Source: Escherichia phage 2725-N35
DNA length: 45,917 bases
Reading direction: 5' to 3' (one strand)
Sequence record: MN840485.1
Of the stretch, positions 2,734 to 45,917 are shown one piece after another. Under the pieces are notes generated by a model, which was given only the letters and a program-made list of their open reading frames with translations, did no database searches and was not told the DNA's origin. The translations under genes and the position numbers were made by a program. The first letter of the stretch is position 1; each line of letters opens with the position of its first letter.

Positions 2734-3213
2734 ATGAATACAGTCGACAAGCGAACAATTAACGGCAATAACGGAACCATCCGCACCGAAGACAAAAAGC
2801 AACGTAAACGACCTTCAGGCTACTATGTTTTAAAAGATGAAGTAAGAGCCGGGCTACGCGCGCGGCTAGAGATAGTTCTTGATTTCTTCGGCACAAAGGC
2901 GAATATCGCAAAGCAGTTAAAGGTAACACCACAGGCTGTAGAAGAATGGTTTAAGCGCGGTATGATTTCTGCGCGTGGGGCTCAACTTTCTCACAACTAC
3001 TATAAGCGAAATGGAGAAGGTTTTCGCGCTACATTCTGCCGACCAGACCTGCAATTCGACGGCAACGGGAGACCGCTGACACTTCGGTGCAAAAAGCGCC
3101 ATATGCTGCGAGTCGTCACTGAGGCTGAATTAGCCACTAAGCCAGAGTGTCGTTCATGGCGCAAGATAAAATTAGAGAACCAAAAGAAGAAAGAGCAAAA
3201 CAGCACGATTTGA
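2734..3213 (+). CDS. DNA-binding protein with Cro/YdaS-like helix-turn-helix; putative transcriptional regulator
   Basis: 159 aa; 'TKANIAKQLKVTPQAVEEWFKRGMIS' HTH; SD GAGGT upstream of ATG. Confidence 0.55.
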   Translation: MNTVDKRTINGNNGTIRTEDKKQRKRPSGYYVLKDEVRAGLRARLEIVLDFFGTKANIAKQLKVTPQAVEEWFKRGMISARGAQLSHNYYKRNGEGFRATFCRPDLQFDGNGRPLTLRCKKRHMLRVVTEAELATKPECRSWRKIKLENQKKKEQNSTI

Positions 3214-3268
3214 TAAACAATGGCACTTTGCATTATGTATAGTGCCTTTATTGTTTATGGAGGTAATT

Positions 3269-4195
3269 ATGAGTCACAATGATAAGAACGAAGTGATAGC
3301 CAAGATGAAAGGGATGTGGAGTGAGTTCTACTCATCGCATCTTGGATGGACAAAGGAGAATCTCAGCAAGAAACATGGTCCGTGCCCTTACTGCTTTGGC
3401 AAGGATAGGTTTCGCTTCACTGATGAGTTAGGTCAAGAAAAGGGAAATGGCGCAGCAATATGCAACCAGTGTGGAAATGATTCTGGTGTTGGTTGGGTAA
3501 TGAAGTGTTCTGGAATGAGTTATAGTGAAACAATAGATACGCTTGGTGATTGGCTGAATCTCGTTCCAGTAGAGGTTATATCAAAAGCAAACAAAAGAGC
3601 TTCAAGAACATCACCATACAAAATGGGCGCTCAGATTGATCACGAAAGATGCTTAGAGATAATGGAAAGGACGGAAAGAGTAGAATCAACTCCTCTCAGT
3701 ACATACGAGGGTATCTATAGCGAGTTCGGTTTTGATGTTGGCAGGACGAAATCAGGTGAATTAATCCACGCAGTTCCGTGCTTTATGGCTTATAGCGACG
3801 GTATATCAGAAGAAATGTGTAATGTAATGTTTATCAATGAAGAGGGAGATGTTAGTTATGCTGCAAAAGATTATACTCGCCAGTCTATTTCTGTTATTGG
3901 TTCCCTTAAGGATGATGAGTACGCTTATCTGGTCGATAATCTCATTGACGGCTATCATGTTCACATTGCTACTGGCAACCGCTGCGTGCTTGTTTGCCAC
4001 TCCAGTTACAACATGGAAATGGTTGCTTACGCGCTTAGAAACTACAAGTTACGCATCGCTTGTACTCGCAGCGATTTTGATTTACTCGCCGTTGCTGACG
4101 ATCGCAATCTTGATGTTGTAATGCCAAATAATGATAACCACTTCAAATCAGGAATAAGAAAGCGAATATACAAGGCGAGCGAATTACTAGACTAA
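3269..4195 (+). CDS. DNA primase (zinc-finger type), putative
   Basis: 'CPYCFGKDRF...CNQCGN' zinc-binding motif; sits next to the helicase; start moved to the ATG preceded by GGAGG (track ORF begins at GTG 3242). Confidence 0.55.
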   Translation: MSHNDKNEVIAKMKGMWSEFYSSHLGWTKENLSKKHGPCPYCFGKDRFRFTDELGQEKGNGAAICNQCGNDSGVGWVMKCSGMSYSETIDTLGDWLNLVPVEVISKANKRASRTSPYKMGAQIDHERCLEIMERTERVESTPLSTYEGIYSEFGFDVGRTKSGELIHAVPCFMAYSDGISEEMCNVMFINEEGDVSYAAKDYTRQSISVIGSLKDDEYAYLVDNLIDGYHVHIATGNRCVLVCHSSYNMEMVAYALRNYKLRIACTRSDFDLLAVADDRNLDVVMPNNDNHFKSGIRKRIYKASELLD

Positions 4196-4216
4196 CCTCC
4201 TTCGGGAGGTTTTTTT
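4196..4216 (+). terminator. Rho-independent terminator after primase
   Basis: CCTCC-ttcg-GGAGG hairpin followed by T7. Confidence 0.8.
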
Positions 4217-4221
4217 ATGAC

Positions 4222-4258
4222 TCAAAGATGCTACAATCCACTTTAGCAATTCGTGCTA
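4222..4258 (+). promoter_or_regulatory. Extended -10 promoter (TGcTACAAT) followed by an inverted copy of the P-box upstream motif; candidate operator
   Basis: gaTGCTACAATccacTTTAGCAATTCGTGCTATTTT immediately upstream of the tail fibre gene. Confidence 0.45.
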
Positions 4259-4282
4259 TTTTACAAATGGAGACTCTACACA

Positions 4283-6817
4283 ATGGCAATTTATGACTCA
4301 GGAACAGCTTCTCTAGCAGCAAGTGGTGAGGTGACTGGCGTCGGGACAACATGGAAAGCACCTCTTACACTGATTCGTGTAGGTGCAACCATTGTATTTA
4401 AAACTGAACCAGTACAGATTTACACCATCTCAGAAATTATCAGCGATACGCAGATTAATGTTTACAACCCTAACTCCGAAACTGTTCCTGCTGGAACTGG
4501 TTACGCTATCCTTGCGCATGATGGAATTACCGTTCAGGGATTGGCTCAGGATGTAGCAGAGACTTTGCGTTACTACCAGTCTAAGGAGACATCCATCGAA
4601 GGATTGCTGCAATTTATTGGTCAAGACACTTTCGACTGGCCTCGCTTCGAGCAACTTGCAAATCAATCAATCACTGGAGCTGCGGAGGCGCTTGCTAGTC
4701 AGGTTACTGCCGCAGAGAGTGCTTCTACTGCTGTTAGCGCAAGAGACGCAACAACATCAGCGAGAGATGCTACTATTGAGGCAATTAATAGTGCTGGTGA
4801 TGCCAGCACGCTGGTTACTCTTGCTAATATTGGTATTGGTACATCATCACAGCCGCAGATAAGTGCGATTGACTGGCAGACGTATGATTTCAAGTCAATG
4901 TCTAGCTTCACAACGACGCTGCAGTCGATGAGTAACTTGCCTGCGGGGTTGAATTTTGCAACCGGAAACCCATACCTTTTTGTTACAGTTCTTTCATCAA
5001 GGTCTGTCGCAGGGACTGTATCGGCAAAGGTTCAAGTTTCAACAAGGGCCGATAACGACAACAACACAAGAGTTTACGACGTTTACGTAAATGGGAACGT
5101 CGGGTCTAGGGTTTTTTCTGTAAGAGAGAATCTTAGCCTTGTTTCAAACTCAACAACACCCGACGGAGGTGTAACTGCGGATAGAATCAGAAGCAGACTT
5201 GATATTTACTCAAAGAGTGAGACTGATGGGGTTGTAGATGCTCTTAAAAACTTCAAGCTTAATAATGTTTCATCAGTAGTTAGAAGTGTGGAATCAAAAC
5301 TTGGTGACTTTGTTAACGTCATGGATTTTGGTGCTACAAACAATGGTACTTTAGTTCCTCTTTCATCTAAATTTTCGACAATTGAGGATGCGCGGTTTGT
5401 TTATCCATTTGCATCAAACCTTAACGAGTCACTTGACGCAGTTGCGCTTCAGGCGGCGGTTAATACTGGCAAAACGGTATACATACCAAAAGGATTTATG
5501 TTTATTAACAGGACTGTAAGGATTGGCAACAGCACGAGAATTATTGGTGAGGGGACAAGCCAAATAAACAGGGCGCAAACATTTATATCAGTTGATGGAA
5601 ACATAAACCTGTTTGCCTTGGTTCAGGGTGGTGCTGAAAACATAAGAATGTATCAAGTATTTATTGAAGGACTTTACATTTTTTATAACCCAGGAACTAC
5701 ACCGACCGTAGCATCAGGGAATGATCAAAAGATAGCATTCAACTTTGTTTCTAATGTTGGTTCTGCCACAGGGCTAGAAAATTCATGTATCAAAGATTGC
5801 ACAGTTCATGGAGCGTGGGGTTGCTACCTTGATACTACTGGAACGTATCAAACAAAGCTGCAAAACGTATGGGCAAGGAACTGTAGAAACGGATTCATTA
5901 AAGCCACAGGAACTACAATTCTTATGGAAACATGCTACGCATCTGGCTGCGTTTCTCCTTTTGAATTTGGTTCAGTAATGAGTGTGACAATGATTAACTG
6001 CGCAATGGATGCCAGTAATATATCATCAACATCAGGTTCTTATGGTGGGGCTGGAATTAACTTCATCAACAGCCATAGTGTAAACATACTAGGGATGGAC
6101 GTCGAAGGTAACATTATTGACACCAACGGTTCTCAGGATTGCTGCCTTATTAGGTTTAATAACTCAAATGGCAGGATTTCTGGACTAACGTCATGGAAAA
6201 ACGAGGTTAGAACAACTGGAGGTGGTTCTGGTGGTGTGGTTTCATATATCAAGGCCTCTGGAACGTCTCACGTCATTATTGACTCGTCTGAGGATGATAT
6301 TAATGATAGCGGATTGGTTTACACTGGAACTGGTGGATATCCAGTAACAATTTACGCGGCAGATTCGGCGTCAAGGATTGATATTCTCAGCGGTAGGTTC
6401 CAGTCAGCTAAAGGGGGCTCCCCTTCGATATCGGTTGTTAGTCAGGGCAATGTGAACTGGTTTACTGAGCCTATGGGTGGTTCTATTGCTGGTGGTTATA
6501 AGCAGACATACTCATCAGAAGGATTGAGGACTAATGGTGTTTATACGGATAAAGGTTCAAAGGTGGTACAGGCAAGCGTTCCAACTGGGCTATTTGAATT
6601 ACCAAACTCACCAGGCTTGTACAAGGTTTGTACCTGGGTGGCTAATGCTGGAACAAACTATAGCGTCATAGCTGACGTTCTATTTGATGGAGCCACATCA
6701 TCAATTACAGTCACTAAGACGGCAGCATTTACAACACTGGATGTTAGTTCAAGGACTGTCAGTATAACTGCACGGGGTGCAGCCACTTACAAATGGACTT
6801 ACACTAAAATAGGTTAA
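4283..6817 (+). CDS. Tail fibre/tailspike protein with predicted right-handed beta-helix (possible depolymerase) domain
   Basis: 845 aa; N-terminus 'MAIYDSGTASLAASGEVTGVGTTWKAPLTLIRVGATIVFK' as in T1/T5-type fibre anchors; central region rich in N/G/T/S beta-helix-like repeats. Confidence 0.65.
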   Translation: MAIYDSGTASLAASGEVTGVGTTWKAPLTLIRVGATIVFKTEPVQIYTISEIISDTQINVYNPNSETVPAGTGYAILAHDGITVQGLAQDVAETLRYYQSKETSIEGLLQFIGQDTFDWPRFEQLANQSITGAAEALASQVTAAESASTAVSARDATTSARDATIEAINSAGDASTLVTLANIGIGTSSQPQISAIDWQTYDFKSMSSFTTTLQSMSNLPAGLNFATGNPYLFVTVLSSRSVAGTVSAKVQVSTRADNDNNTRVYDVYVNGNVGSRVFSVRENLSLVSNSTTPDGGVTADRIRSRLDIYSKSETDGVVDALKNFKLNNVSSVVRSVESKLGDFVNVMDFGATNNGTLVPLSSKFSTIEDARFVYPFASNLNESLDAVALQAAVNTGKTVYIPKGFMFINRTVRIGNSTRIIGEGTSQINRAQTFISVDGNINLFALVQGGAENIRMYQVFIEGLYIFYNPGTTPTVASGNDQKIAFNFVSNVGSATGLENSCIKDCTVHGAWGCYLDTTGTYQTKLQNVWARNCRNGFIKATGTTILMETCYASGCVSPFEFGSVMSVTMINCAMDASNISSTSGSYGGAGINFINSHSVNILGMDVEGNIIDTNGSQDCCLIRFNNSNGRISGLTSWKNEVRTTGGGSGGVVSYIKASGTSHVIIDSSEDDINDSGLVYTGTGGYPVTIYAADSASRIDILSGRFQSAKGGSPSISVVSQGNVNWFTEPMGGSIAGGYKQTYSSEGLRTNGVYTDKGSKVVQASVPTGLFELPNSPGLYKVCTWVANAGTNYSVIADVLFDGATSSITVTKTAAFTTLDVSSRTVSITARGAATYKWTYTKIG

Positions 6818-8003: not shown

Positions 8004-8050
8004 ATCATACCCCGCATTTTAATTTTGTCTTTAGCAATTCGTGCTGTTTA
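8004..8050 (-). promoter_or_regulatory. P-box promoter upstream of the erf-ssb operon
   Basis: AACAGCACGAATTGCTAAAG, 22 nt, TATGAT; 29-nt leader to erf ATG. Confidence 0.6.
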
Positions 8051-9209: not shown

Positions 9210-9404
9210 TTATTCCTTAACCTTAACCACTTTAACAGACTTCAAATCTTCTTCAGTGAAGTAACCAGTCAGCACATCTCGGGCTTCTTCTTTAGTCTCG
9301 AATCTGTCAGCCTCTTTCTTATCTGTTGTGTACCCAGCAGGTCCACCAAAGTAGCAGTCGCCGAACAGTGCGTTGTTTTTCTCTTTGATAATGTAGTAGG
9401 TCAT
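9210..9404 (-). CDS. Hypothetical small protein
   Basis: 64 aa ORF, first gene after divergent region A. Confidence 0.45.
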   Translation of the reverse strand: MTYYIIKEKNNALFGDCYFGGPAGYTTDKKEADRFETKEEARDVLTGYFTEEDLKSVKVVKVKE

Positions 9405-9424
9405 TTCTCTATCTCTATGGTTGT

Positions 9425-9480
9425 TTGCTTTCGATTGGTTAACTATATATTCGGCACCGTAGCCAGTCCAATTGGTTTTG
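9425..9480 (-). promoter_or_regulatory. Degenerate P-box promoter for the 9404-leftward operon
   Basis: Minus reading: ...GCAAAACCAATTGG, 22 nt, TATATAGTTAACCAATCGAAAGC leader. Confidence 0.4.
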
Positions 9481-9711
9481 CCAATCGTTGATTCAATTTT
9501 ACGCGTTAATCATTGTAATTCCGTGTAGGTATTGCCGCTAGTTACGTTTCTTGGCATCTCAGCCCAGCTATAGCTCAATGTAACTAGTGTGTATGTCGTG
9601 TATATCATTTATTGCTGAGGGTGCATTGGTATAGCAGCCGCGCAATACTGTATAAATCCACATGATATTAAAATTATAACCGGAACACTCTATAGAAGTG
9701 GTTACATGATA

Positions 9712-9775
9712 TACACAGTAATATATATAATAATAATAATAAGAGTAAAAGGTTGTTATATATAGATATTTTAAT
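9712..9775. repeat. AT-rich element with (TAA)n microsatellite, copy 1 (copy 2 at ~36306..36372)
   Basis: acacagtaatatatataataataataataagagtaaaaggttgttatatatagatatt; ~90% identical to copy 2. Confidence 0.8.
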
Positions 9776-9867
9776 GTAACTAATGCGTAAATTAGCGTAA
9801 CAGAGCGTATATCATTTTCCGCGGATGAGATTGTATACATCGAGTTACATCGGTTACGTGTATGCAA

Positions 9868-9935
9868 TAGCACGAATAGCTAAAGACATTCCGCACTGAC
9901 GGTTGTATTATTACTACATCGAAACGAAACAACTT
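9868..9935 (+). promoter_or_regulatory. P-box promoter for the lipoprotein/receptor-binding protein operon
   Basis: AATAGCACGAATAGCTAAAG, 23 nt, TATTAT, TACTACATCGAAACGAAAC leader. Confidence 0.55.
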
Positions 9936-9950
9936 AATAAGGAATACAAA

Positions 9951-10196
9951 ATGACTAACTTCATCAAATCAGCAATCATAGCGGCGGCAGTAATCATGAC
10001 GGTAGGTTGTTCTTCTGGTCCTCGACCTGATGGGTGGTGTGCAACACAAGCAAACGGCGTGTGCGTAGCTAAGTGGAAAGGCGGTGTAGTTGTTCCGGCT
10101 GGTGATGTTGATATTCGCTACGCTGGCATTGAAAGCAAATCTGGCGGCGGTTACGGCGGTTCTGTTGCAGATCACGGCAGTAAGGAGTGGAAATAA
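9951..10196 (+). CDS. Small lipoprotein; candidate superinfection-exclusion factor
   Basis: Signal peptide with lipobox (...IMTVGC SSG); SD AAGGA; track ORF trimmed to this ATG. Confidence 0.6.
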
Positions 10197-11158
10197 TGCC
10201 GCAGGGTATATTGATTGACCTCAATGACGGAAGACCAGCGATGGAAATCACGGCAGGATTAAGGGCACCTGCTGTGACTGGATCAATAAATACCAATGGA
10301 CTTTCAACCCCAGCAATCTCGTGGGATTTTGGATTGACAATGTCTCCTGGCTCTACGGCTTTCTGCCTACCAACGAAGGCAGTCCACGTTGACGCTTACG
10401 ATGTTATACCCGAAGTTTATTACATGAACGGGTTTCAAAAGGTAAATGACGGAACTGGCAGGATAACTCTCAGCAACTTCAATGGTGCTAATGGTCGAAT
10501 AATTGACTTTGCTGGTAATTGCTTTGAGATACTACCGGCTTCACCCTCATCAAGTCCTGGAATACTTGTTGAGAACTCAACTGATTTCCTTGCTATATCA
10601 AGCAACTCGCGTCTAATGTCTGCGGCCTGGGTTGGTGGCATACAGGTTAACGGTGCAGCATCGCTACCAGTTAGCGGAATACCATTCGGCAAGTGGGATA
10701 ATCCAAACGTATCACTTGAATCAGATGGATCAACAATATGGTGTAGGGATATAACCTACGGAGGTACAGATGATGTTGCGGCAAGTACCCATGTTCAGCT
10801 GGTGATATTCAGGAATGAACCACCACCAGCAGGGCCCGGGCTCACAATGTCAAATAGTTCTGGTCAGATTGTTTTTTCAAGTGTTCGCCGCCCATTCGTT
10901 CTTGGTGGATTTATACAAATAAGCAATGGATATCAGTCAATAAATGGTGGTTTCTTCCCGCTGCTTAGGTGCGGCGCTACGACTAGAGTTACCGGAGGGT
11001 ATAACAACTTACGATACAAGGGTGTTTGCATGTCTGGAGGCTCCGTTAGGGCTGTTCCTGGATCTGTAATAGGTAACTACTCAACTCAGACAGGCGCTCA
11101 GTTTCCTTTCGACACGAACATATCAATGGCACTTCCATTTATCCCAAACTTCTACTAA
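10196..11158 (+). CDS. Putative receptor-binding or distal tail protein
   Basis: 321 aa; ATG overlaps the lipoprotein stop (TAATG); convergent on the J-like gene. Function inferred from context only. Confidence 0.4.
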   Translation: MPQGILIDLNDGRPAMEITAGLRAPAVTGSINTNGLSTPAISWDFGLTMSPGSTAFCLPTKAVHVDAYDVIPEVYYMNGFQKVNDGTGRITLSNFNGANGRIIDFAGNCFEILPASPSSSPGILVENSTDFLAISSNSRLMSAAWVGGIQVNGAASLPVSGIPFGKWDNPNVSLESDGSTIWCRDITYGGTDDVAASTHVQLVIFRNEPPPAGPGLTMSNSSGQIVFSSVRRPFVLGGFIQISNGYQSINGGFFPLLRCGATTRVTGGYNNLRYKGVCMSGGSVRAVPGSVIGNYSTQTGAQFPFDTNISMALPFIPNFY

Positions 11159-11159
11159 A

Positions 11160-11189
11160 AGAAAAGCCCCAATTAAGGGGCTTTATTTA
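11160..11189. terminator. Bidirectional terminator between the putative receptor-binding protein gene and the J-like gene
   Basis: GCCCC-aattaa-GGGGC flanked by T-runs on both strands. Confidence 0.75.
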
Positions 11190-14100
11190 TTACCACACTC
11201 CAACTACCACTCTTCCTCCGTTCGGTAAGTTTACAGTGATTCCGTTATTGTTAATCTGAACCGTGTTATTGGTTCCGTTAAAAGCAAAGTTACCATTGTT
11301 AGCGTAAAGATTGCCCCTTACAGTTGTGTTATTGAACTCTGACGCACCACTTTTCAGTATCGCCCATCCCTGAGAGCCTGCTACATAATCATTTGATGAA
11401 ATTATATTACCAATCTTAGCGTTAGTAATTGAGCCATCGCCGATTACTGCGCTTTGGATGATTACGTTTCCGTTCTCGACAACGAAGGGGAGCTGCCACT
11501 GACCGGAACCAGAACCAATGCCGTTACTGATTGCGAATCTGTTTGCGTCAAAGATGAACTGACTGCGAACATTCCCACCAGTACCAACAAGTTCCATACT
11601 CATGCCTGATGAATAAGTCTGTCCATTGTATTTCAGGCCAAGACTAATTCCGTACTGTACACCAGTTGACGTGGCATTAGAGAAAGCATCCAGCTTCTGG
11701 TTTAGAGCTGCCTCGTTATTACCAACCCTTGCGCTCAAAGCCGTGTCGGCTGTCGCTCTTGCCTCTGTCTCTGTGGCTAGCGCTGTTTCAATTGTTGTAA
11801 TCTGACCAACAACCTCATCATCAATCTGCGCTTTAAGCTGCGTAAGAGCCTCTACACGCGCCTGAGTTTCATCAGCTATGAGATTAACAGCCTGAACATA
11901 TTCAGCCTTACGCTTACCGTTCTCCTTGGTCATGCGGCGAACATCGGCATCATTAGCTAATGAATTCTCAAGAATTGACTCTGCCTGATTCTGAATATCC
12001 TGGTTCTTTTGAATCGCATTCTGCTCTAGGTATTTAAAACCATCCGAGCCTTCAATATCAACCTTGATATAATCGTTGATGATGTTGGCGTCGTCAGTAC
12101 TCATTCCTCTTGCGAAGGCAGACCAATCAGACGTATTTCCGATTCTGTCGATCAATCTTGCGCGATACCAAATCACCTTGCCTGGCTGAATTGGCGTGTG
12201 CCAGTACTCATAGGCTGGATAAGGCAGTAACGTCAGTAAGCTTGCGTTATCAGGATTGTAAGTGCCGTCACCATTATCAGGGACCTGCTGAAGTTCAGTG
12301 TAAGCAGTGTCACCAGAACCCTCAGGGAAACCCCACTTAACACGGATGCCAAATACCTCATCTGTTGATGCCGTGATAACAGTAGGTGCCGATGGACGAC
12401 CAATCTTGCCAGTTAGCGATACGGTTACAATGCCAGACCAGGCAGACACGTTTTCAGTATCTGATACGCTGCGAACCCTAACGTCATAGATTCCTGCGTA
12501 AATACCTTCAATATCAACTTCTGTGCTAGCTGTTCTTGGTACGTTAATCCAGTTACCATTTTCTTTCCTCCATTGAACATTATATGTTTTAGCGTATGGC
12601 GCCTTATCCCATCCTATAACCATCGTCTCAACTGACAACCCTTGAACAACCTTACTGTAGCTTGATACGGTCAGGTTTTCTGGTGGCGATAGTCTGTCAG
12701 GCTCAACAATTGAAGTCGGGCGGTCAACAATGTTAACGCCGTAGTCAATCTCATCATACTTGTTCGGGTCATACTCTACTGCGGTAATTGTATACTGGAA
12801 TGAATCCGAACCGTCAGAATCTGCTTTTTGAATCCCGGTCACAACGTATTGCTGAAGAGCAAGATTATCCTTATCGATTGCGAATACAGTGTCAGGCTGA
12901 GCTAAAAAACTGAAAGCAGTGTTAAGGTTGATTGTTCTTCCATCCTCCGAAACGCTGGCAATAGTTCTTGCCTCTGGACTTCCGTCTGGCTTGTTCAGAA
13001 GAATTCTGTCACCAGGCGCTGCGTCAACTTTAAAAGGGGTAAAAACCTGCAACCCCTGAACTGACTCAATACGACCGGAAAGGTTTAACTGATAGTTGCT
13101 AGACCATGCGGCGTCATTGACCGCAATTACCTCGCCAATCATCGGAATCATACCTTCCAACCCTGTAGTGAAGCTGATAGTTTCGCTTCTCAGGTTTGTT
13201 TTCAGGAGCCATCTGCCACGTCTGTTTGCTTCACTTCTGCGAGTGCATCCAATCGCAGTTAAATCTACAGGGTTAAATCCAAAACGACGAGTTGCCTCTA
13301 ATTCAAATACCGGCTCAACATCCTGTTGATAGTTGTTCTCTACATCATCAAACTGGACGTTTGCCGTGGTGTAAAGGCTTTTATCACTGGCAAAGGTTCG
13401 ACTGAACAATCCGTTTACAACGTTATCATTGGTGAAGATGTAAGATGGGTTGCGAGGCTTATCAACCACGATACCAATCTTTTCACCGTCATAGAAAGTC
13501 AGACCACGGAAGATTGAGCAGATATCACGAATTAGCGTGTAGGCCTCAACCTTGTTTTGCACAACCATATCGCAAAGGTAACGCGGCTCTAAACCACCCT
13601 TACCATCCGGAACCATCTGGTCACAGAATTGCGCGGCTTCATACAAGCCCCATTTATCAATCTCTACACCCAACTCTCGCTGGTCAAGCCCATAGCGTCG
13701 GTTTGTCACCAGGTCATAGAGAACCCATGCCGGGTTATTCGACCATGCCATCTTGAATAAGCCATTCCATGTCCCGCTGTAAGTCCTTGTCTCCGTGTCG
13801 TAGTTTGTCGGTACCTGAATTAGCTTCCAACGCTTCTTTATTGAGATTGTCGGGATGCCGTTAGGGAACAAGTCAGAACCAAACTCAACATAGACCAGAG
13901 CCGTAAGCGGGTAGCGGAATTTGGCGTCGATTACTTCCTGATAGGTTGTAATCTGCATACCATTGACCAGCGTACTGCTTGTTGAATCGGGTGTAATCTT
14001 GCGGATTCGAACCAGTGCGCTATCAAATTCAGCCGGAAGGTTCACGCGAATGCTGCGGTCATAACCTGTAGTTGTCTTGCCGTTAGCAACTCCGCGAGTG

Positions 14101-14615
14101 TATTCCTGATATGCTCCACCATTAACAGACAGGTCAATTGCGTACTCACAAGTTGTTCCGTTCAGGTCTCCATTGCTTTCTTGCTTAACCAGTCTAGGCC
14201 AATATAGCTTTACACGAATCGCTGATAGCTGAGTATTGTTAACCGCAATGATGTACGGGGTATCGTTCTTGATTTCTCTGGATGCCTGAATCTCTGAGTT
14301 AGCACCGTCAAGCCCGGCGATATAATCCTGATACTGCGTGCCGGCACGGAACTCAGCGCGAACACCTTCGTAGTTGTAGCTACCATCCTGGTTTTGCACC
14401 GGAACGTCGGCAAGGTATAAATCTTTCATTGAGAAATTGGGGTCAACCTCACCATCAGCAACCGCCAAAAGAACCTTAACCTTGTTTAGTGAAATGAGGT
14501 TATCTTCCTGCTCCACTGGTTGATGCTGCTTCTGGCTACCACCTTTAGCACCATAAATCTTAATATCTTCAGCCATATCACAAAGCCTCATGTTTGTTTT
14601 GATCATTTGTGCCAT
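11190..14615 (-). CDS. Tail tip/central fibre protein, lambda gpJ-like (host specificity protein)
   Basis: 1141 aa; conserved gpJ region 'YPLTALVYVEFGSD...IQVPTNYDTETRTYSGTWNGLFK..AWSNNPAWVLYDL'. Confidence 0.9.
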   Translation of the reverse strand: MAQMIKTNMRLCDMAEDIKIYGAKGGSQKQHQPVEQEDNLISLNKVKVLLAVADGEVDPNFSMKDLYLADVPVQNQDGSYNYEGVRAEFRAGTQYQDYIAGLDGANSEIQASREIKNDTPYIIAVNNTQLSAIRVKLYWPRLVKQESNGDLNGTTCEYAIDLSVNGGAYQEYTRGVANGKTTTGYDRSIRVNLPAEFDSALVRIRKITPDSTSSTLVNGMQITTYQEVIDAKFRYPLTALVYVEFGSDLFPNGIPTISIKKRWKLIQVPTNYDTETRTYSGTWNGLFKMAWSNNPAWVLYDLVTNRRYGLDQRELGVEIDKWGLYEAAQFCDQMVPDGKGGLEPRYLCDMVVQNKVEAYTLIRDICSIFRGLTFYDGEKIGIVVDKPRNPSYIFTNDNVVNGLFSRTFASDKSLYTTANVQFDDVENNYQQDVEPVFELEATRRFGFNPVDLTAIGCTRRSEANRRGRWLLKTNLRSETISFTTGLEGMIPMIGEVIAVNDAAWSSNYQLNLSGRIESVQGLQVFTPFKVDAAPGDRILLNKPDGSPEARTIASVSEDGRTINLNTAFSFLAQPDTVFAIDKDNLALQQYVVTGIQKADSDGSDSFQYTITAVEYDPNKYDEIDYGVNIVDRPTSIVEPDRLSPPENLTVSSYSKVVQGLSVETMVIGWDKAPYAKTYNVQWRKENGNWINVPRTASTEVDIEGIYAGIYDVRVRSVSDTENVSAWSGIVTVSLTGKIGRPSAPTVITASTDEVFGIRVKWGFPEGSGDTAYTELQQVPDNGDGTYNPDNASLLTLLPYPAYEYWHTPIQPGKVIWYRARLIDRIGNTSDWSAFARGMSTDDANIINDYIKVDIEGSDGFKYLEQNAIQKNQDIQNQAESILENSLANDADVRRMTKENGKRKAEYVQAVNLIADETQARVEALTQLKAQIDDEVVGQITTIETALATETEARATADTALSARVGNNEAALNQKLDAFSNATSTGVQYGISLGLKYNGQTYSSGMSMELVGTGGNVRSQFIFDANRFAISNGIGSGSGQWQLPFVVENGNVIIQSAVIGDGSITNAKIGNIISSNDYVAGSQGWAILKSGASEFNNTTVRGNLYANNGNFAFNGTNNTVQINNNGITVNLPNGGRVVVGVW

Positions 14616-28989: not shown

Positions 28990-29045
28990 GTGAAGTAACT
29001 ATACGCCATCCGTGGCTCTAGCGTTTAGCAATTCGTGCTATTTAA
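28990..29045 (-). promoter_or_regulatory. P-box promoter for the 28592..28966 moron
   Basis: AAATAGCACGAATTGCTAAAC, 22 nt, TATAGTTACTTCACACAAAC; the TerL stop codon (TAG) lies within the motif. Confidence 0.6.
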
Positions 29046-33964: not shown

Positions 33965-34025
33965 GGTGTGAACTAACTATAACAAAACCAGCCGGAGCGG
34001 GTTTAGCAATTCGTGCTATTTGCCA
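33965..34025 (-). promoter_or_regulatory. P-box promoter
   Basis: AAATAGCACGAATTGCTAAAC, 22 nt, TATAGTTAGTTCACACCAAACGAGAGG. Confidence 0.6.
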
Positions 34026-34944: not shown

Positions 34945-35005
34945 GATGTGGTAATCATATCCGATTACCCGATACATTGTTTAGCAATTCGTGCTATTTA
35001 GCACT
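34945..35005 (-). promoter_or_regulatory. P-box promoter
   Basis: AAATAGCACGAATTGCTAAAC, 22 nt, TATGATTACCACATCGACAACAAAGAGG. Confidence 0.6.
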
Positions 35006-37704: not shown

Positions 37705-37866
37705 TGCTATTACCATCTGAGATAAATTATTTCGATCTTGAGGTCGTAAGTGCCTATAGCGGAAAGGGCTGGCCTTGTGGAGATTGGTTCCGAGAGGACT
37801 TGCTAGAGAGTCACGAGATTATGCTTAAGGCGATAGAAAAAGCACGAAATAGCACGAATTGCTAAA
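37705..37866 (+). CDS. Hypothetical small protein (~53 aa)
   Basis: ORF MLLPSEINYFDLEV...; stop codon is the TAA of the next P-box (TTGCTAA); coordinates approximate. Confidence 0.35.
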
Positions 37867-37905
37867 TCCATACGTGGCTTTTCCTGTATATTAACCTCAT
37901 CGAAA
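37850..37905 (+). promoter_or_regulatory. P-box promoter
   Basis: AAATAGCACGAATTGCTAAAT, 22 nt, TATATTAACCTCATCGAAACGGGAG. Confidence 0.6.
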
Positions 37906-44882: not shown

Positions 44883-45079
44883 TCTGATACCTCATCAAAT
44901 TTTTCGCCAAATTCGTTTTTAACAGTTTCTAAATCATCTTTGTAGCTAGGGCTAACTTCGAAAGAGTAATCTCCATCCATTACATCAATGAGGATGTAAC
45001 CATCTTCTGTGATGACCAACTCATATTCGTAACCAGTTTTGCGTGATTCGTAGAATTTTCCAGTGTAGATAGTAGCCAT
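44879..45079 (-). CDS. Hypothetical small protein
   Basis: Start set at ATG (MATIYTGKFY...) 30 nt downstream of the P-box -10; track ORF extends to 45127. Confidence 0.45.
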   Translation of the reverse strand: MATIYTGKFYESRKTGYEYELVITEDGYILIDVMDGDYSFEVSPSYKDDLETVKNEFGEKFDEVSE

Positions 45080-45116
45080 TTTATTTCTCTCTTTGTGTTT
45101 CGTTTCGATGGAGTAA

Positions 45117-45162
45117 CTATACCCCATCTTTTAAAATCGCCTTTAGCAATTCGTGCTATTTT
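45117..45162 (-). promoter_or_regulatory. P-box promoter (archetype; duplicated at ~182..228)
   Basis: AAAATAGCACGAATTGCTAAAGG, 22 nt, TATAGTTACTCCATCGAAACGAAAC; VRR-NUC stop TAG lies inside the box. Confidence 0.6.
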
Positions 45163-45575
45163 GAAATCATTTCTTTGAATGCTGCAAGAAAACCCTCACG
45201 TCCGTAGGCGACTGCCGAGAAACCGCCTGATTCCATTACACTTTTCAGGAATGCCTTCTGTTCTTCGCTGACTGGACTTGCTTGAGTTTTGCCAGCCCTC
45301 TTTAGCTCTATAGCTCCGAAAGGATACTTACCTCGAAGTGATTCAGGAATAAGAAACATACAGTCTGATACGCCTTTTAGAAGCCCCTTAGCCTGGTCTT
45401 TTCTTGCTTGACCAATGGTTTTCTTTCCCTCATTCACGCAATGGAAAAATACCATATCTGGGTAGTTATACTTAACCCAATCAGAGCAAAAGATTTGTTC
45501 GTCATCCTCTTTAGGGCATGACTTAACCGGACCAGGGTAAAACTCAATGTAATCTTCTTTATCTGTAATCTTCAT
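45156..45575 (-). CDS. VRR-NUC-like nuclease (duplicate of 222..641 within the terminal repeat)
   Basis: Identical 139-aa translation. Confidence 0.6.
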   Translation of the reverse strand: MKITDKEDYIEFYPGPVKSCPKEDDEQIFCSDWVKYNYPDMVFFHCVNEGKKTIGQARKDQAKGLLKGVSDCMFLIPESLRGKYPFGAIELKRAGKTQASPVSEEQKAFLKSVMESGGFSAVAYGREGFLAAFKEMISK

Positions 45576-45917
45576 AATAATTCTCCAAAATTCTTAAACG
45601 CTATCACGTCCTTTCCTTTTGCATTCCGGCGATGCGTAACCTGAACTGGCGCACGGAACTTATCTACGTTAGTCATAATCATTCTGGCATTTTTAAGCCT
45701 GCCAATTCGCGCCGCTTCCGTGCGATTCTCAATATGAGCTAAGCAAAAGTTCTTCCAGAGCACACTGCAAACTCGATGGTCTGATTCTGGATTAAAGAAC
45801 TCCCAAGCGTTAAATCTCTCTCCGTTATGAGCCATTATATTGTACTTAACTACAATGCCTGTCTGATTCTTACTTAACCCAACTTGAAAATCATAAACAC
45901 GAAGGTAATCACCACGA
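45572..45917 (-). CDS. Helicase gene, 3' portion (duplicate, truncated by the window end)
   Basis: Translation identical to the C-terminus of the 638..2632 product. Confidence 0.6.
   Translation of the reverse strand, partial: RGDYLRVYDFQVGLSKNQTGIVVKYNIMAHNGERFNAWEFFNPESDHRVCSVLWKNFCLAHIENRTEAARIGRLKNARMIMTNVDKFRAPVQVTHRRNAKGKDVIAFKNFGELL

Follow-up and report, generated by a model that had tools for sequence, protein, structure and literature searches.

A probable LptD-specific host-recognition cassette in Escherichia phage 2725-N35, a Braunvirinae (T1-like) coliphage

Dependence on LptD is known for the phages Bas01, Bas02, Bas18 and others (Maffei 2021, PMC8594841). The link was confirmed in phage OzMSK (Black 2025, PMC13035648), solved structurally (Dunbar 2025, PMC12685063) and reconfirmed by genome-wide screens (bioRxiv 10.64898/2026.04.02.716166). 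OzMSK infects neither the lptD Δ(Y658-Y678) nor the Δ(L394-V396) mutant, and a targeted loop-11 deletion in lptD made BL21(DE3) resistant to it (PMC13035648). Two structures define the corresponding phage proteins. The receptor-binding protein (RBP) of Oekolampad (Bas18), RBPOeko, is chain C of PDB entry 9RPT, on Shigella LptDE, and the lipoprotein Rtp45 of phage Rtp was resolved by cryo-electron microscopy bound to LptDE from the periplasm, with LptE and LptM on either side (PMC12685063). In the latter complex a hairpin of Rtp45 goes up the LptD lumen, extracellular loop 4 is moved by up to 20 Å, and the resulting LptDE conformation is incompatible with RBP binding; AlphaFold3 models of Rtp45 and of its complex were reported to be wrong (PMC12685063). 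Here, we analysed two plus-strand genes at positions 9951-11158 of sequence record MN840485.1, from Escherichia phage 2725-N35; the whole stretch of 45,917 nucleotides (nt) is referred to as the window. We conclude, with a probability of about 0.93, that the two genes form a host-recognition cassette specific for LptD in a Braunvirinae (T1-like) coliphage, comprising a terminal RBP and a lipoprotein that would block the same receptor. A preliminary description of the window, made from the letters alone, had proposed a host-range plus superinfection-exclusion module at this place, and both the literature and our comparisons support that proposal. Such an RBP and exclusion-lipoprotein module of small siphoviruses is already known (Maffei 2021; Black 2025; Dunbar 2025).

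The second gene of the pair (10196..11158, plus strand; ATG 10196-10198, TAA 11156-11158) encodes a protein of 320 amino acids (aa); the 321 aa given previously included the stop codon. A Pfam search placed this protein in the DUF6453 family (PF20051), with 464.6 bits against a cutoff of 25 over profile positions 1-291. A sequence search of the PDB returned one relative, chain C of 9RPT, 9RPW and 9RQI, with an E-value of 3.8e-67, and the protein falls within the double β-sandwich fold of RBPOeko that was solved on LptDE. Its identity was 97.5% to SU57_43, 96.6% to OzMSK_038, 45.0% to RBPOeko, 41.6% to the Bas02 protein and 40.3% to Rtp44. Conservation within the RBP family was highest in residues 1-20 (0.83), was high also in residues 121-240 and was lowest in residues 41-120 (0.42-0.49), a profile that fits a conserved N-terminal anchor with more variable regions elsewhere. 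Invariant residues of these RBPs map to a 'base' that holds the N-terminus (Black 2025, PMC13035648), and in RBPOeko bound to its receptor the N-terminal end is disordered (PMC12685063). The record of OzMSK_038 annotates it as a putative LptD receptor-binding protein. We read the 320-aa protein, a member of the DUF6453 family, as the probable terminal RBP, expected at the end of the J-like fibre, where it would bind LptD.

The first gene (9951..10196, plus strand; ATG 9951, TAA 10194-10196) encodes an 81-aa protein of the Rtp45 family. Its sequence predicts a signal peptide (aa 1-19), a lipidated Cys20 and a mature protein of ~62 aa; the lipobox noted in the preliminary description is present as T-V-G-C, ending in Cys20, with Ser at position +2. 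Lipoproteins that lack Asp at +2 are sorted to the outer membrane, and the protein, with Ser instead of Asp at this position, is probably sorted there as well. It matched the 'Phage lipoprotein family' (Pfam PF24052) over its full length with 131.1 bits against a cutoff of 27, which was its sole significant Pfam match; SGL, at 13.5 bits, remained far under its own cutoff. In the PDB it matched 9rps_D, Rtp45 in the LptDE complex (E-value 5.6e-35). Rtp45 is 78.9% identical overall and ~87% identical over mature residues 20-59, as counted from the alignment, and the OzMSK lipoprotein is 93.8% identical. Relative to Rtp45, the lipidated Cys20 and the disulfide cysteines Cys30 and Cys38 are retained, and Cys30 and Cys38 occur in the window protein as in each of the 13 loci compared. 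Furthermore, residues 30-35, which in Rtp45 form the strand that pairs with β6 of LptD, read CATQAN here and CATQAS in Rtp45.

By likeness to these structures, the cassette would work as follows. The distal loops of the RBP would enter the lumen of LptDE, the outer-membrane lipopolysaccharide (LPS) translocon, in its open state, after which the phage would be committed to injecting its DNA. Export and lipidation at Cys20 would bring the 81-aa protein, which has Ser at +2, to the outer membrane, in whose inner leaflet it would reside. On the periplasmic side of LptDE its hairpin would be pushed up through the LptD lumen and displace extracellular loop 4, so that RBP binding would be lost. With the receptor closed to the RBP, neither the infected cell nor its debris would go on adsorbing this and other LptD-dependent phages; exclusion in vivo is thus predicted for the present lipoprotein. 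Both genes would be expressed from one transcript that runs from a promoter/operator block to a hairpin held in common with gene J, and the RBP gene, tightly juxtaposed to the lipoprotein gene, has its own Shine-Dalgarno sequence.

The two genes overlap by 1 nt, as described before (TAATG): the stop codon of the lipoprotein gene and the start codon of the RBP gene have a single A in common (ATAATG). The junction (10182..10198, plus strand) comprises the Shine-Dalgarno sequence AAGGAG (10182-10187), TAA 10194-10196 and ATG 10196-10198, while the lipoprotein gene has its own Shine-Dalgarno sequence, AAGGA. The conserved C-terminal Lys-Glu-Trp (KEW) of the lipoprotein is encoded by AAG GAG TGG, in which the Lys-Glu codons are the Shine-Dalgarno sequence of the RBP gene, so that one stretch serves two purposes; translation of the two genes may well be coupled. 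This junction, with its Shine-Dalgarno sequence in the KEW codons, was found at 15 loci (the window and 14 others). A KEW-coding Shine-Dalgarno sequence also occurs in a Kuravirus (MK373770 locus, 1715-1738), where the next gene is not an RBP gene. The RBP stop (11158) lies 31 nt from the stop (11190) of the convergent gene J (11190..14615, minus strand), which encodes a 1141-aa J-like central tail fibre/tail tip protein (PHROG 31, central tail fibre J) with the Pfam domains FNIII-A_GpJ, Phage-tail_3 and Phage_Tail_Tip (aa 971-1109). Alternative starts at GTG 10187 (323 aa) and TTG 9903 (97 aa) were ruled out by the starts of all homologues, those of the solved proteins included (MPQG/MAQG/MGAG for the RBP, MTN/MNN for the lipoprotein), and by the Shine-Dalgarno sequence before each ATG. 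Open reading frames (ORFs) also occur on the minus strand within the region (9969-10175, 10069-10296 and 10435-10692); family support attaches to the plus-strand reading of both genes and not to these antisense ORFs.

Between the RBP gene and gene J lies a GC-rich hairpin, AAAGCCCC-aattaa-GGGGCTTT (11163..11184), which a terminator scan and folding identified as terminator-like on both strands (-13.8 and -14.9 kcal/mol). The hairpin was present at the same position in 13 of 13 loci compared, with stems that differ by paired changes, and terminators are annotated at the corresponding site in SU57 (on both strands) and AKS96. The two-way terminator for the pair and the J-like gene in the preliminary description is therefore well founded. 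The layout as a whole, with the lipoprotein gene before the RBP gene, J convergent and the hairpin between, recurred in every close relative examined, namely Rtp (rtp45/rtp44/rtp43), OzMSK, SU57, AKS96, JeanPiccard and 12 IMG/VR loci. The 1-nt overlap was retained in the five named phages and in eight of the 12 IMG/VR loci; the other four have a 2-nt gap. Over the region, nucleotide identity to the window was 98.9% in Veterinaerplatzvirus T145P1, 93.5% in SU57 and 90.9% in OzMSK/Msk. Veterinaerplatzvirus is a genus in the subfamily Braunvirinae of the Drexlerviridae, and JeanPiccard (Bas02), which is LptD-dependent, is also a member.

The two genes diverge from their homologues at very different rates. 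Relative to the window, Rtp has a lipoprotein of 79% and an RBP of 40% identity, and pSf-2-type loci have a lipoprotein of 41% and an RBP of 69% identity. This unequal divergence argues for mosaic exchange inside the module, and frequent horizontal exchange has been reported for RBP loci (PMC8594841). Across LptD-type loci, including those with an RBP down to 40%, the last 100 aa of J kept 75-100% identity, whereas identity to J of T1 (FhuA-type) was only 45%. These values are consistent with the C-terminus of J being a docking surface specific to the type of RBP, on which the present RBP is predicted to dock; a type-specific docking surface on J is also reported in a 2026 preprint (bioRxiv 10.64898/2026.04.02.716166). 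In addition, 68 distant IMG/VR loci, with RBPs of 44-47% identity and four of them inspected in detail, have a DUF6453 gene (e.g. at 3986-4960 in locus L025 and 4001-4960 in L034) right after a J-like gene for 906-1059 aa on the same strand, and a tail-fibre gene comes next. No lipoprotein ORF was found upstream of the DUF6453 gene in any of the 68 distant loci, and in Cronobacter phage ESP2949-1 the lipoprotein homologue lies >10 kb from the RBP gene. Genomes of Citrobacter, Salmonella and Enterobacter also encode DUF6453 proteins of like identity. Since the distant loci keep the order J-DUF6453 without an adjoining lipoprotein gene, adjacency to J is universal among these loci, putative prophages included, unlike linkage to the lipoprotein. 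Among the loci examined, a tight lipoprotein-RBP operon occurred only in closer relatives, which are small siphoviruses (43-51 kb).

The preliminary description had also given the pair a promoter of its own. The promoter-like element AAGACA-17 nt-TATTAT (9883..9911, plus strand) agrees with the sigma-70 consensus at 9 of 12 positions in a consensus scan; such matches numbered 7 in the region and 5.5 ± 2.6 in shuffled sequences, so that the match alone is no evidence and the case for a promoter rests on conservation. Upstream, abutting or overlapping the -35-like hexamer, is an operator-like block, AATAGCACGAATAGCTAAAGAC (9866..9887, plus strand), which reproduces the inverted repeat TAGCA-cgaat-TGCTA imperfectly. 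Downstream is a leader (9912..9950, plus strand) that holds AAGGA (9939-9943) as its Shine-Dalgarno sequence and the motif CATCGAAACGAAAC, common to the promoter family and to relatives. In 11 relatives that have unrelated sequence farther upstream, the hexamers are conserved in position with a variable spacer, and conservation starts exactly at the operator-like block. The block is one of nine copies, at up to 3 mismatches, that the window has of a 22-nt motif (AATAGCACGAATTGCTAAAG.., built on the inverted repeat TAGCA-N5-TGCTA); 100 shuffles gave an expectation of 0 copies. The copies lie on the plus strand at 9866-9887 and 37848-37869 and on the minus strand at 205-226, 4239-4260, 8027-8048, 29021-29042, 33999-34020, 34977-34998 and 45139-45160. 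In eight of the nine, a -10-like hexamer (TATAGT, TATGAT, TATTAT or TATATT) comes next at a constant spacing, and then a CATCGAAACGAAAC-like leader, a Shine-Dalgarno sequence and a gene start; the copy at 4239-4260 has no -10 and a hairpin in its place. The repeat looks like a phage promoter/operator family, whose members also stand before erf, before some small genes and at the start of the morphogenesis cluster. The conserved block and hexamers and the membership of this nine-copy family make it likely that the lipoprotein-RBP pair has its own promoter, as part of a phage-wide operator-bearing family, and co-transcription of the two genes is predicted. The promoter annotated in AKS96 gives no support, since it is on the opposite strand and serves leftward genes. 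The 2006 Rtp genome paper reportedly listed ~10 inverted repeats as putative sites of a regulator, Rtp52, and is said to have proposed Rtp45 as Cor-like.

The sequence before this block appears to be a hot spot for insertions. The operon is preceded by an AT-rich, gene-poor stretch of ~550 bp (intergenic 9404-9865), whose only ORF, a GTG-started frame of 101 aa with a Tyr-rich run (9568-9873, minus strand), is apparently non-coding. Methylase genes lie directly upstream of the promoter block in OzMSK (a DNA methylase) and in JeanPiccard (a Dcm-like C5 methyltransferase); unlike these two, the window has no methylase gene in 9404-9865.

Among described systems, the rtp45-rtp44 pair of Rtp and the Oekolampad pair (PDB 9RPS and 9RPT) are the same LptDE-targeting module as the one in the window, whose RBP is from another clade. 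OzMSK/Msk, with the pair OzMSK_038/039 and experimentally determined LptD dependence, differs by the inserted methylase gene. The preliminary description had likened the locus to Llp and pb5 of T5, and the likeness held for the functional logic. In both, the central fibre of a siphovirus ends in a monomeric RBP that binds a β-barrel of the outer membrane, and a small periplasm-facing lipoprotein from the adjoining gene alters the extracellular loops of the receptor so that RBP binding is lost (PMC12685063; PMC9586334). It did not extend to the receptor, which is FhuA in T5, to the mode of action, which is long-range allostery for Llp on FhuA and steric displacement through the lumen for Rtp45 (PMC12685063), or to the layout: oad (minus strand) and llp (plus strand) are divergent with two annotated promoters between them, whereas the window genes are co-directional and overlapping. 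Nor was homology demonstrable. The 320-aa protein had no detectable homology to pb5 (BLASTP E-value 1.1; pb5 absent among the fold matches listed). Pairwise BLASTP of Llp and the lipoprotein gave a marginal 20.4 bits (E-value 0.001, 31% over 52 aa) in an alignment that extends through the signal peptide into the first ~35 residues of the mature protein, and a PDB sequence search with the lipoprotein did not retrieve Llp at E-values up to 10. Cor is the small FhuA-exclusion lipoprotein of T1, phi80, N15 and HK022; in T1, a member of the Drexlerviridae, its gene likewise lies beside the 3' end of gpJ, and its similarity in T1 is confined to 17 residues of the signal peptide and lipobox, with none in the mature protein (BLASTP). 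T1 further differs in that its two candidate RBP-locus genes (ST32/ST31, downstream of J) are co-directional with J, only cor being convergent, and in its receptor, FhuA. On the BLASTP results, pb5/Llp and Cor were rejected as the families of the window pair and retained as functional analogues. The J-like protein has the FNIII-A_GpJ and tail-tip architecture of lambda J; however, lambda J binds LamB with its own C-terminal domain, whereas specificity in the window would lie with a separate protein, encoded on the opposite strand beside the 3' end of J.

Several points weigh against an LptD-specific cassette in this phage. The RBP is 40-45% identical to Rtp44, which was never expressed, and to the solved RBPOeko; at such identities, the receptor assignment of its clade rests on the OzMSK genetics and the fold. 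All the experimental data come from relatives (OzMSK, Bas01/02/18 and the Rtp45 and RBPOeko structures). Compared with Rtp45, the lipoprotein has a five-residue Gly-rich insertion (SKSGG) in its C-terminal third. The available text of PMC12685063 presents no in vivo exclusion assay for Rtp45 or its homologues, exclusion there being deduced from the structure. Attachment of the RBP to J is seen in no structure, the corresponding end of RBPOeko being disordered in the complex. The promoter is weak by the sigma-70 consensus, and early or late timing is unreadable from it, since its family also stands before the morphogenesis cluster and erf. The low identities to Rtp44, Bas02 and RBPOeko, and the low conservation of residues 41-120, would also suit a cassette that targets an outer-membrane protein other than LptD, as a result of a switch in specificity in the Rogue1/OzMSK-type RBP clade. 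Some Braunvirinae moreover need a second receptor, NupG, through a GpJ domain (bioRxiv 10.64898/2026.04.02.716166). We regard such a switch as very improbable, because either of two lptD loop deletions fully blocks OzMSK, a phage with a 96.6% identical RBP (PMC13035648), and because the partner lipoprotein is 79% identical to Rtp45, which was solved on LptDE. In addition, every DUF6453 locus with an experimentally determined receptor is LptD-type, and four RBP families correspond one to one with receptors (PMC8594841; bioRxiv 10.64898/2026.04.02.716166). As for NupG, Bas01, which has a NupG-type J, was absent among the 60 matches listed, and the C-terminal 400 aa of J are 90% identical to those of Bas02, a phage not reported to be NupG-dependent.

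A recognition role for the 320-aa protein could itself be questioned, with specificity residing in the J-like protein as in lambda. PHROG 1265 is labelled 'membrane protein' in the category 'moron, auxiliary metabolic gene and host takeover', several RefSeq records also say 'membrane protein', and J itself sets specificity in TolC- and LamB-type relatives (PMC8594841). The fold rules out the PHROG and RefSeq label for this protein, and we give a non-structural moron even less credence than a change of receptor. A different emphasis for the lipoprotein is easier to entertain, although still unlikely: it might mainly guard progeny from receptor-bearing debris or modulate LptD and hence LPS export, with exclusion as a by-product. 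Both purposes are given for superinfection-exclusion factors in PMC12685063 and PMC9586334, the gene is in an operon with the RBP gene and not separately promoted as in T5, and Rtp45 in the LptD lumen could in principle affect LPS passage (PMC12685063). However, the molecular act, a block of RBP-LptD binding, would be identical, which makes this a difference of emphasis; we found no published data on LPS transport with Rtp45 present; and operon linkage is not essential, since in Kuravirus and in the distant co-directional loci the lipoprotein is unlinked from the RBP. The LptD-specific recognition and exclusion cassette accordingly remains the reading that we favour.

Two further features of the window stand apart from the cassette. 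Its ends (1-~980 and ~44935-45917) appear to repeat each other, because the flanks of the motif copies at 205-226 and 45139-45160 are identical over the ~105 nt displayed. The unit would then be ~44,934 bp, and the repeat would be either a terminal redundancy or an assembly overlap, which fits the 44.8-45.5 kb records of T145P1. An ORF of 854 aa lies at 4253-6817 (plus strand); its counterpart by position in OzMSK, CPTvBecoSOzMSK_047, upstream of the ssb/erf genes, is annotated with a pectate-lyase-superfamily (tailspike-like) domain. Matched by gene position, the 854-aa ORF probably encodes a lateral fibre or tailspike for a primary glycan receptor, distinct from the LptD-binding tip.

Distant homologues of both cassette proteins were also found in podoviruses of the Gordonclarkvirinae/Kuravirus group (~75-79 kb), where they are encoded tens of kb apart. 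In SU10 (KM044272), gp19 (SU10_019; 343 aa, 'hypothetical') matched DUF6453 at 83.5 bits, and its gene lies directly after SU10_018, which encodes the tail needle gp18 (gp18 at 2806-3774 and gp19 at 3776-4807 of the locus). SU10 gp18 carries a Phage_Tail_Tip domain (3.7e-27), like the C-terminus of the window J. In a Kuravirus, the 93-aa protein WFI101126_00111 (MK373770, locus 1453-1734) matched PF24052 at 123 bits; its gene is in a small-gene region next to tRNA-Arg, unlinked to the RBP gene. Kuravirus has each of the three parts, namely a central fibre or needle that bears Phage_Tail_Tip, a gene for a DUF6453 RBP directly behind it and a PF24052 lipoprotein, and gp19 may therefore be an LptD binder at the needle tip. 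We therefore propose tentatively, at somewhat less than even odds, that the LptD kit is a portable three-part cassette across tail morphotypes; family membership and gene order suggest LptD as an overlooked terminal protein receptor of the Gordonclarkvirinae. The N-terminus of gp19 lacks the anchor motif GILIDxNDGRP, the SU10 structure paper and its available supplements make no mention of gp19, and we found no link between Kuravirus and LptD in the papers searched. Drawing on T-even phages, the BASEL completion paper proposed the LPS core as terminal receptor, bound by the short tail fibres of the Gordonclarkvirinae. If the wider proposal is true, the window cassette would be one instance of an exchangeable module that reaches far beyond the 'small siphovirus RBP locus', and an exclusion lipoprotein would be predicted in Gordonclarkvirinae as well, beside an LptD-binding needle-tip protein.

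For the DUF6453 RBP family, the labels 'membrane protein', 'hypothetical protein' and 'moron' are outdated. In the present phage, use of LptD, an essential and conserved protein, as terminal receptor and the exclusion of other LptD-dependent phages can be predicted with high confidence. Such predictions are relevant to the design of phage cocktails, to 'phage steering' and to resistant production strains, as in the outbreak of OzMSK.

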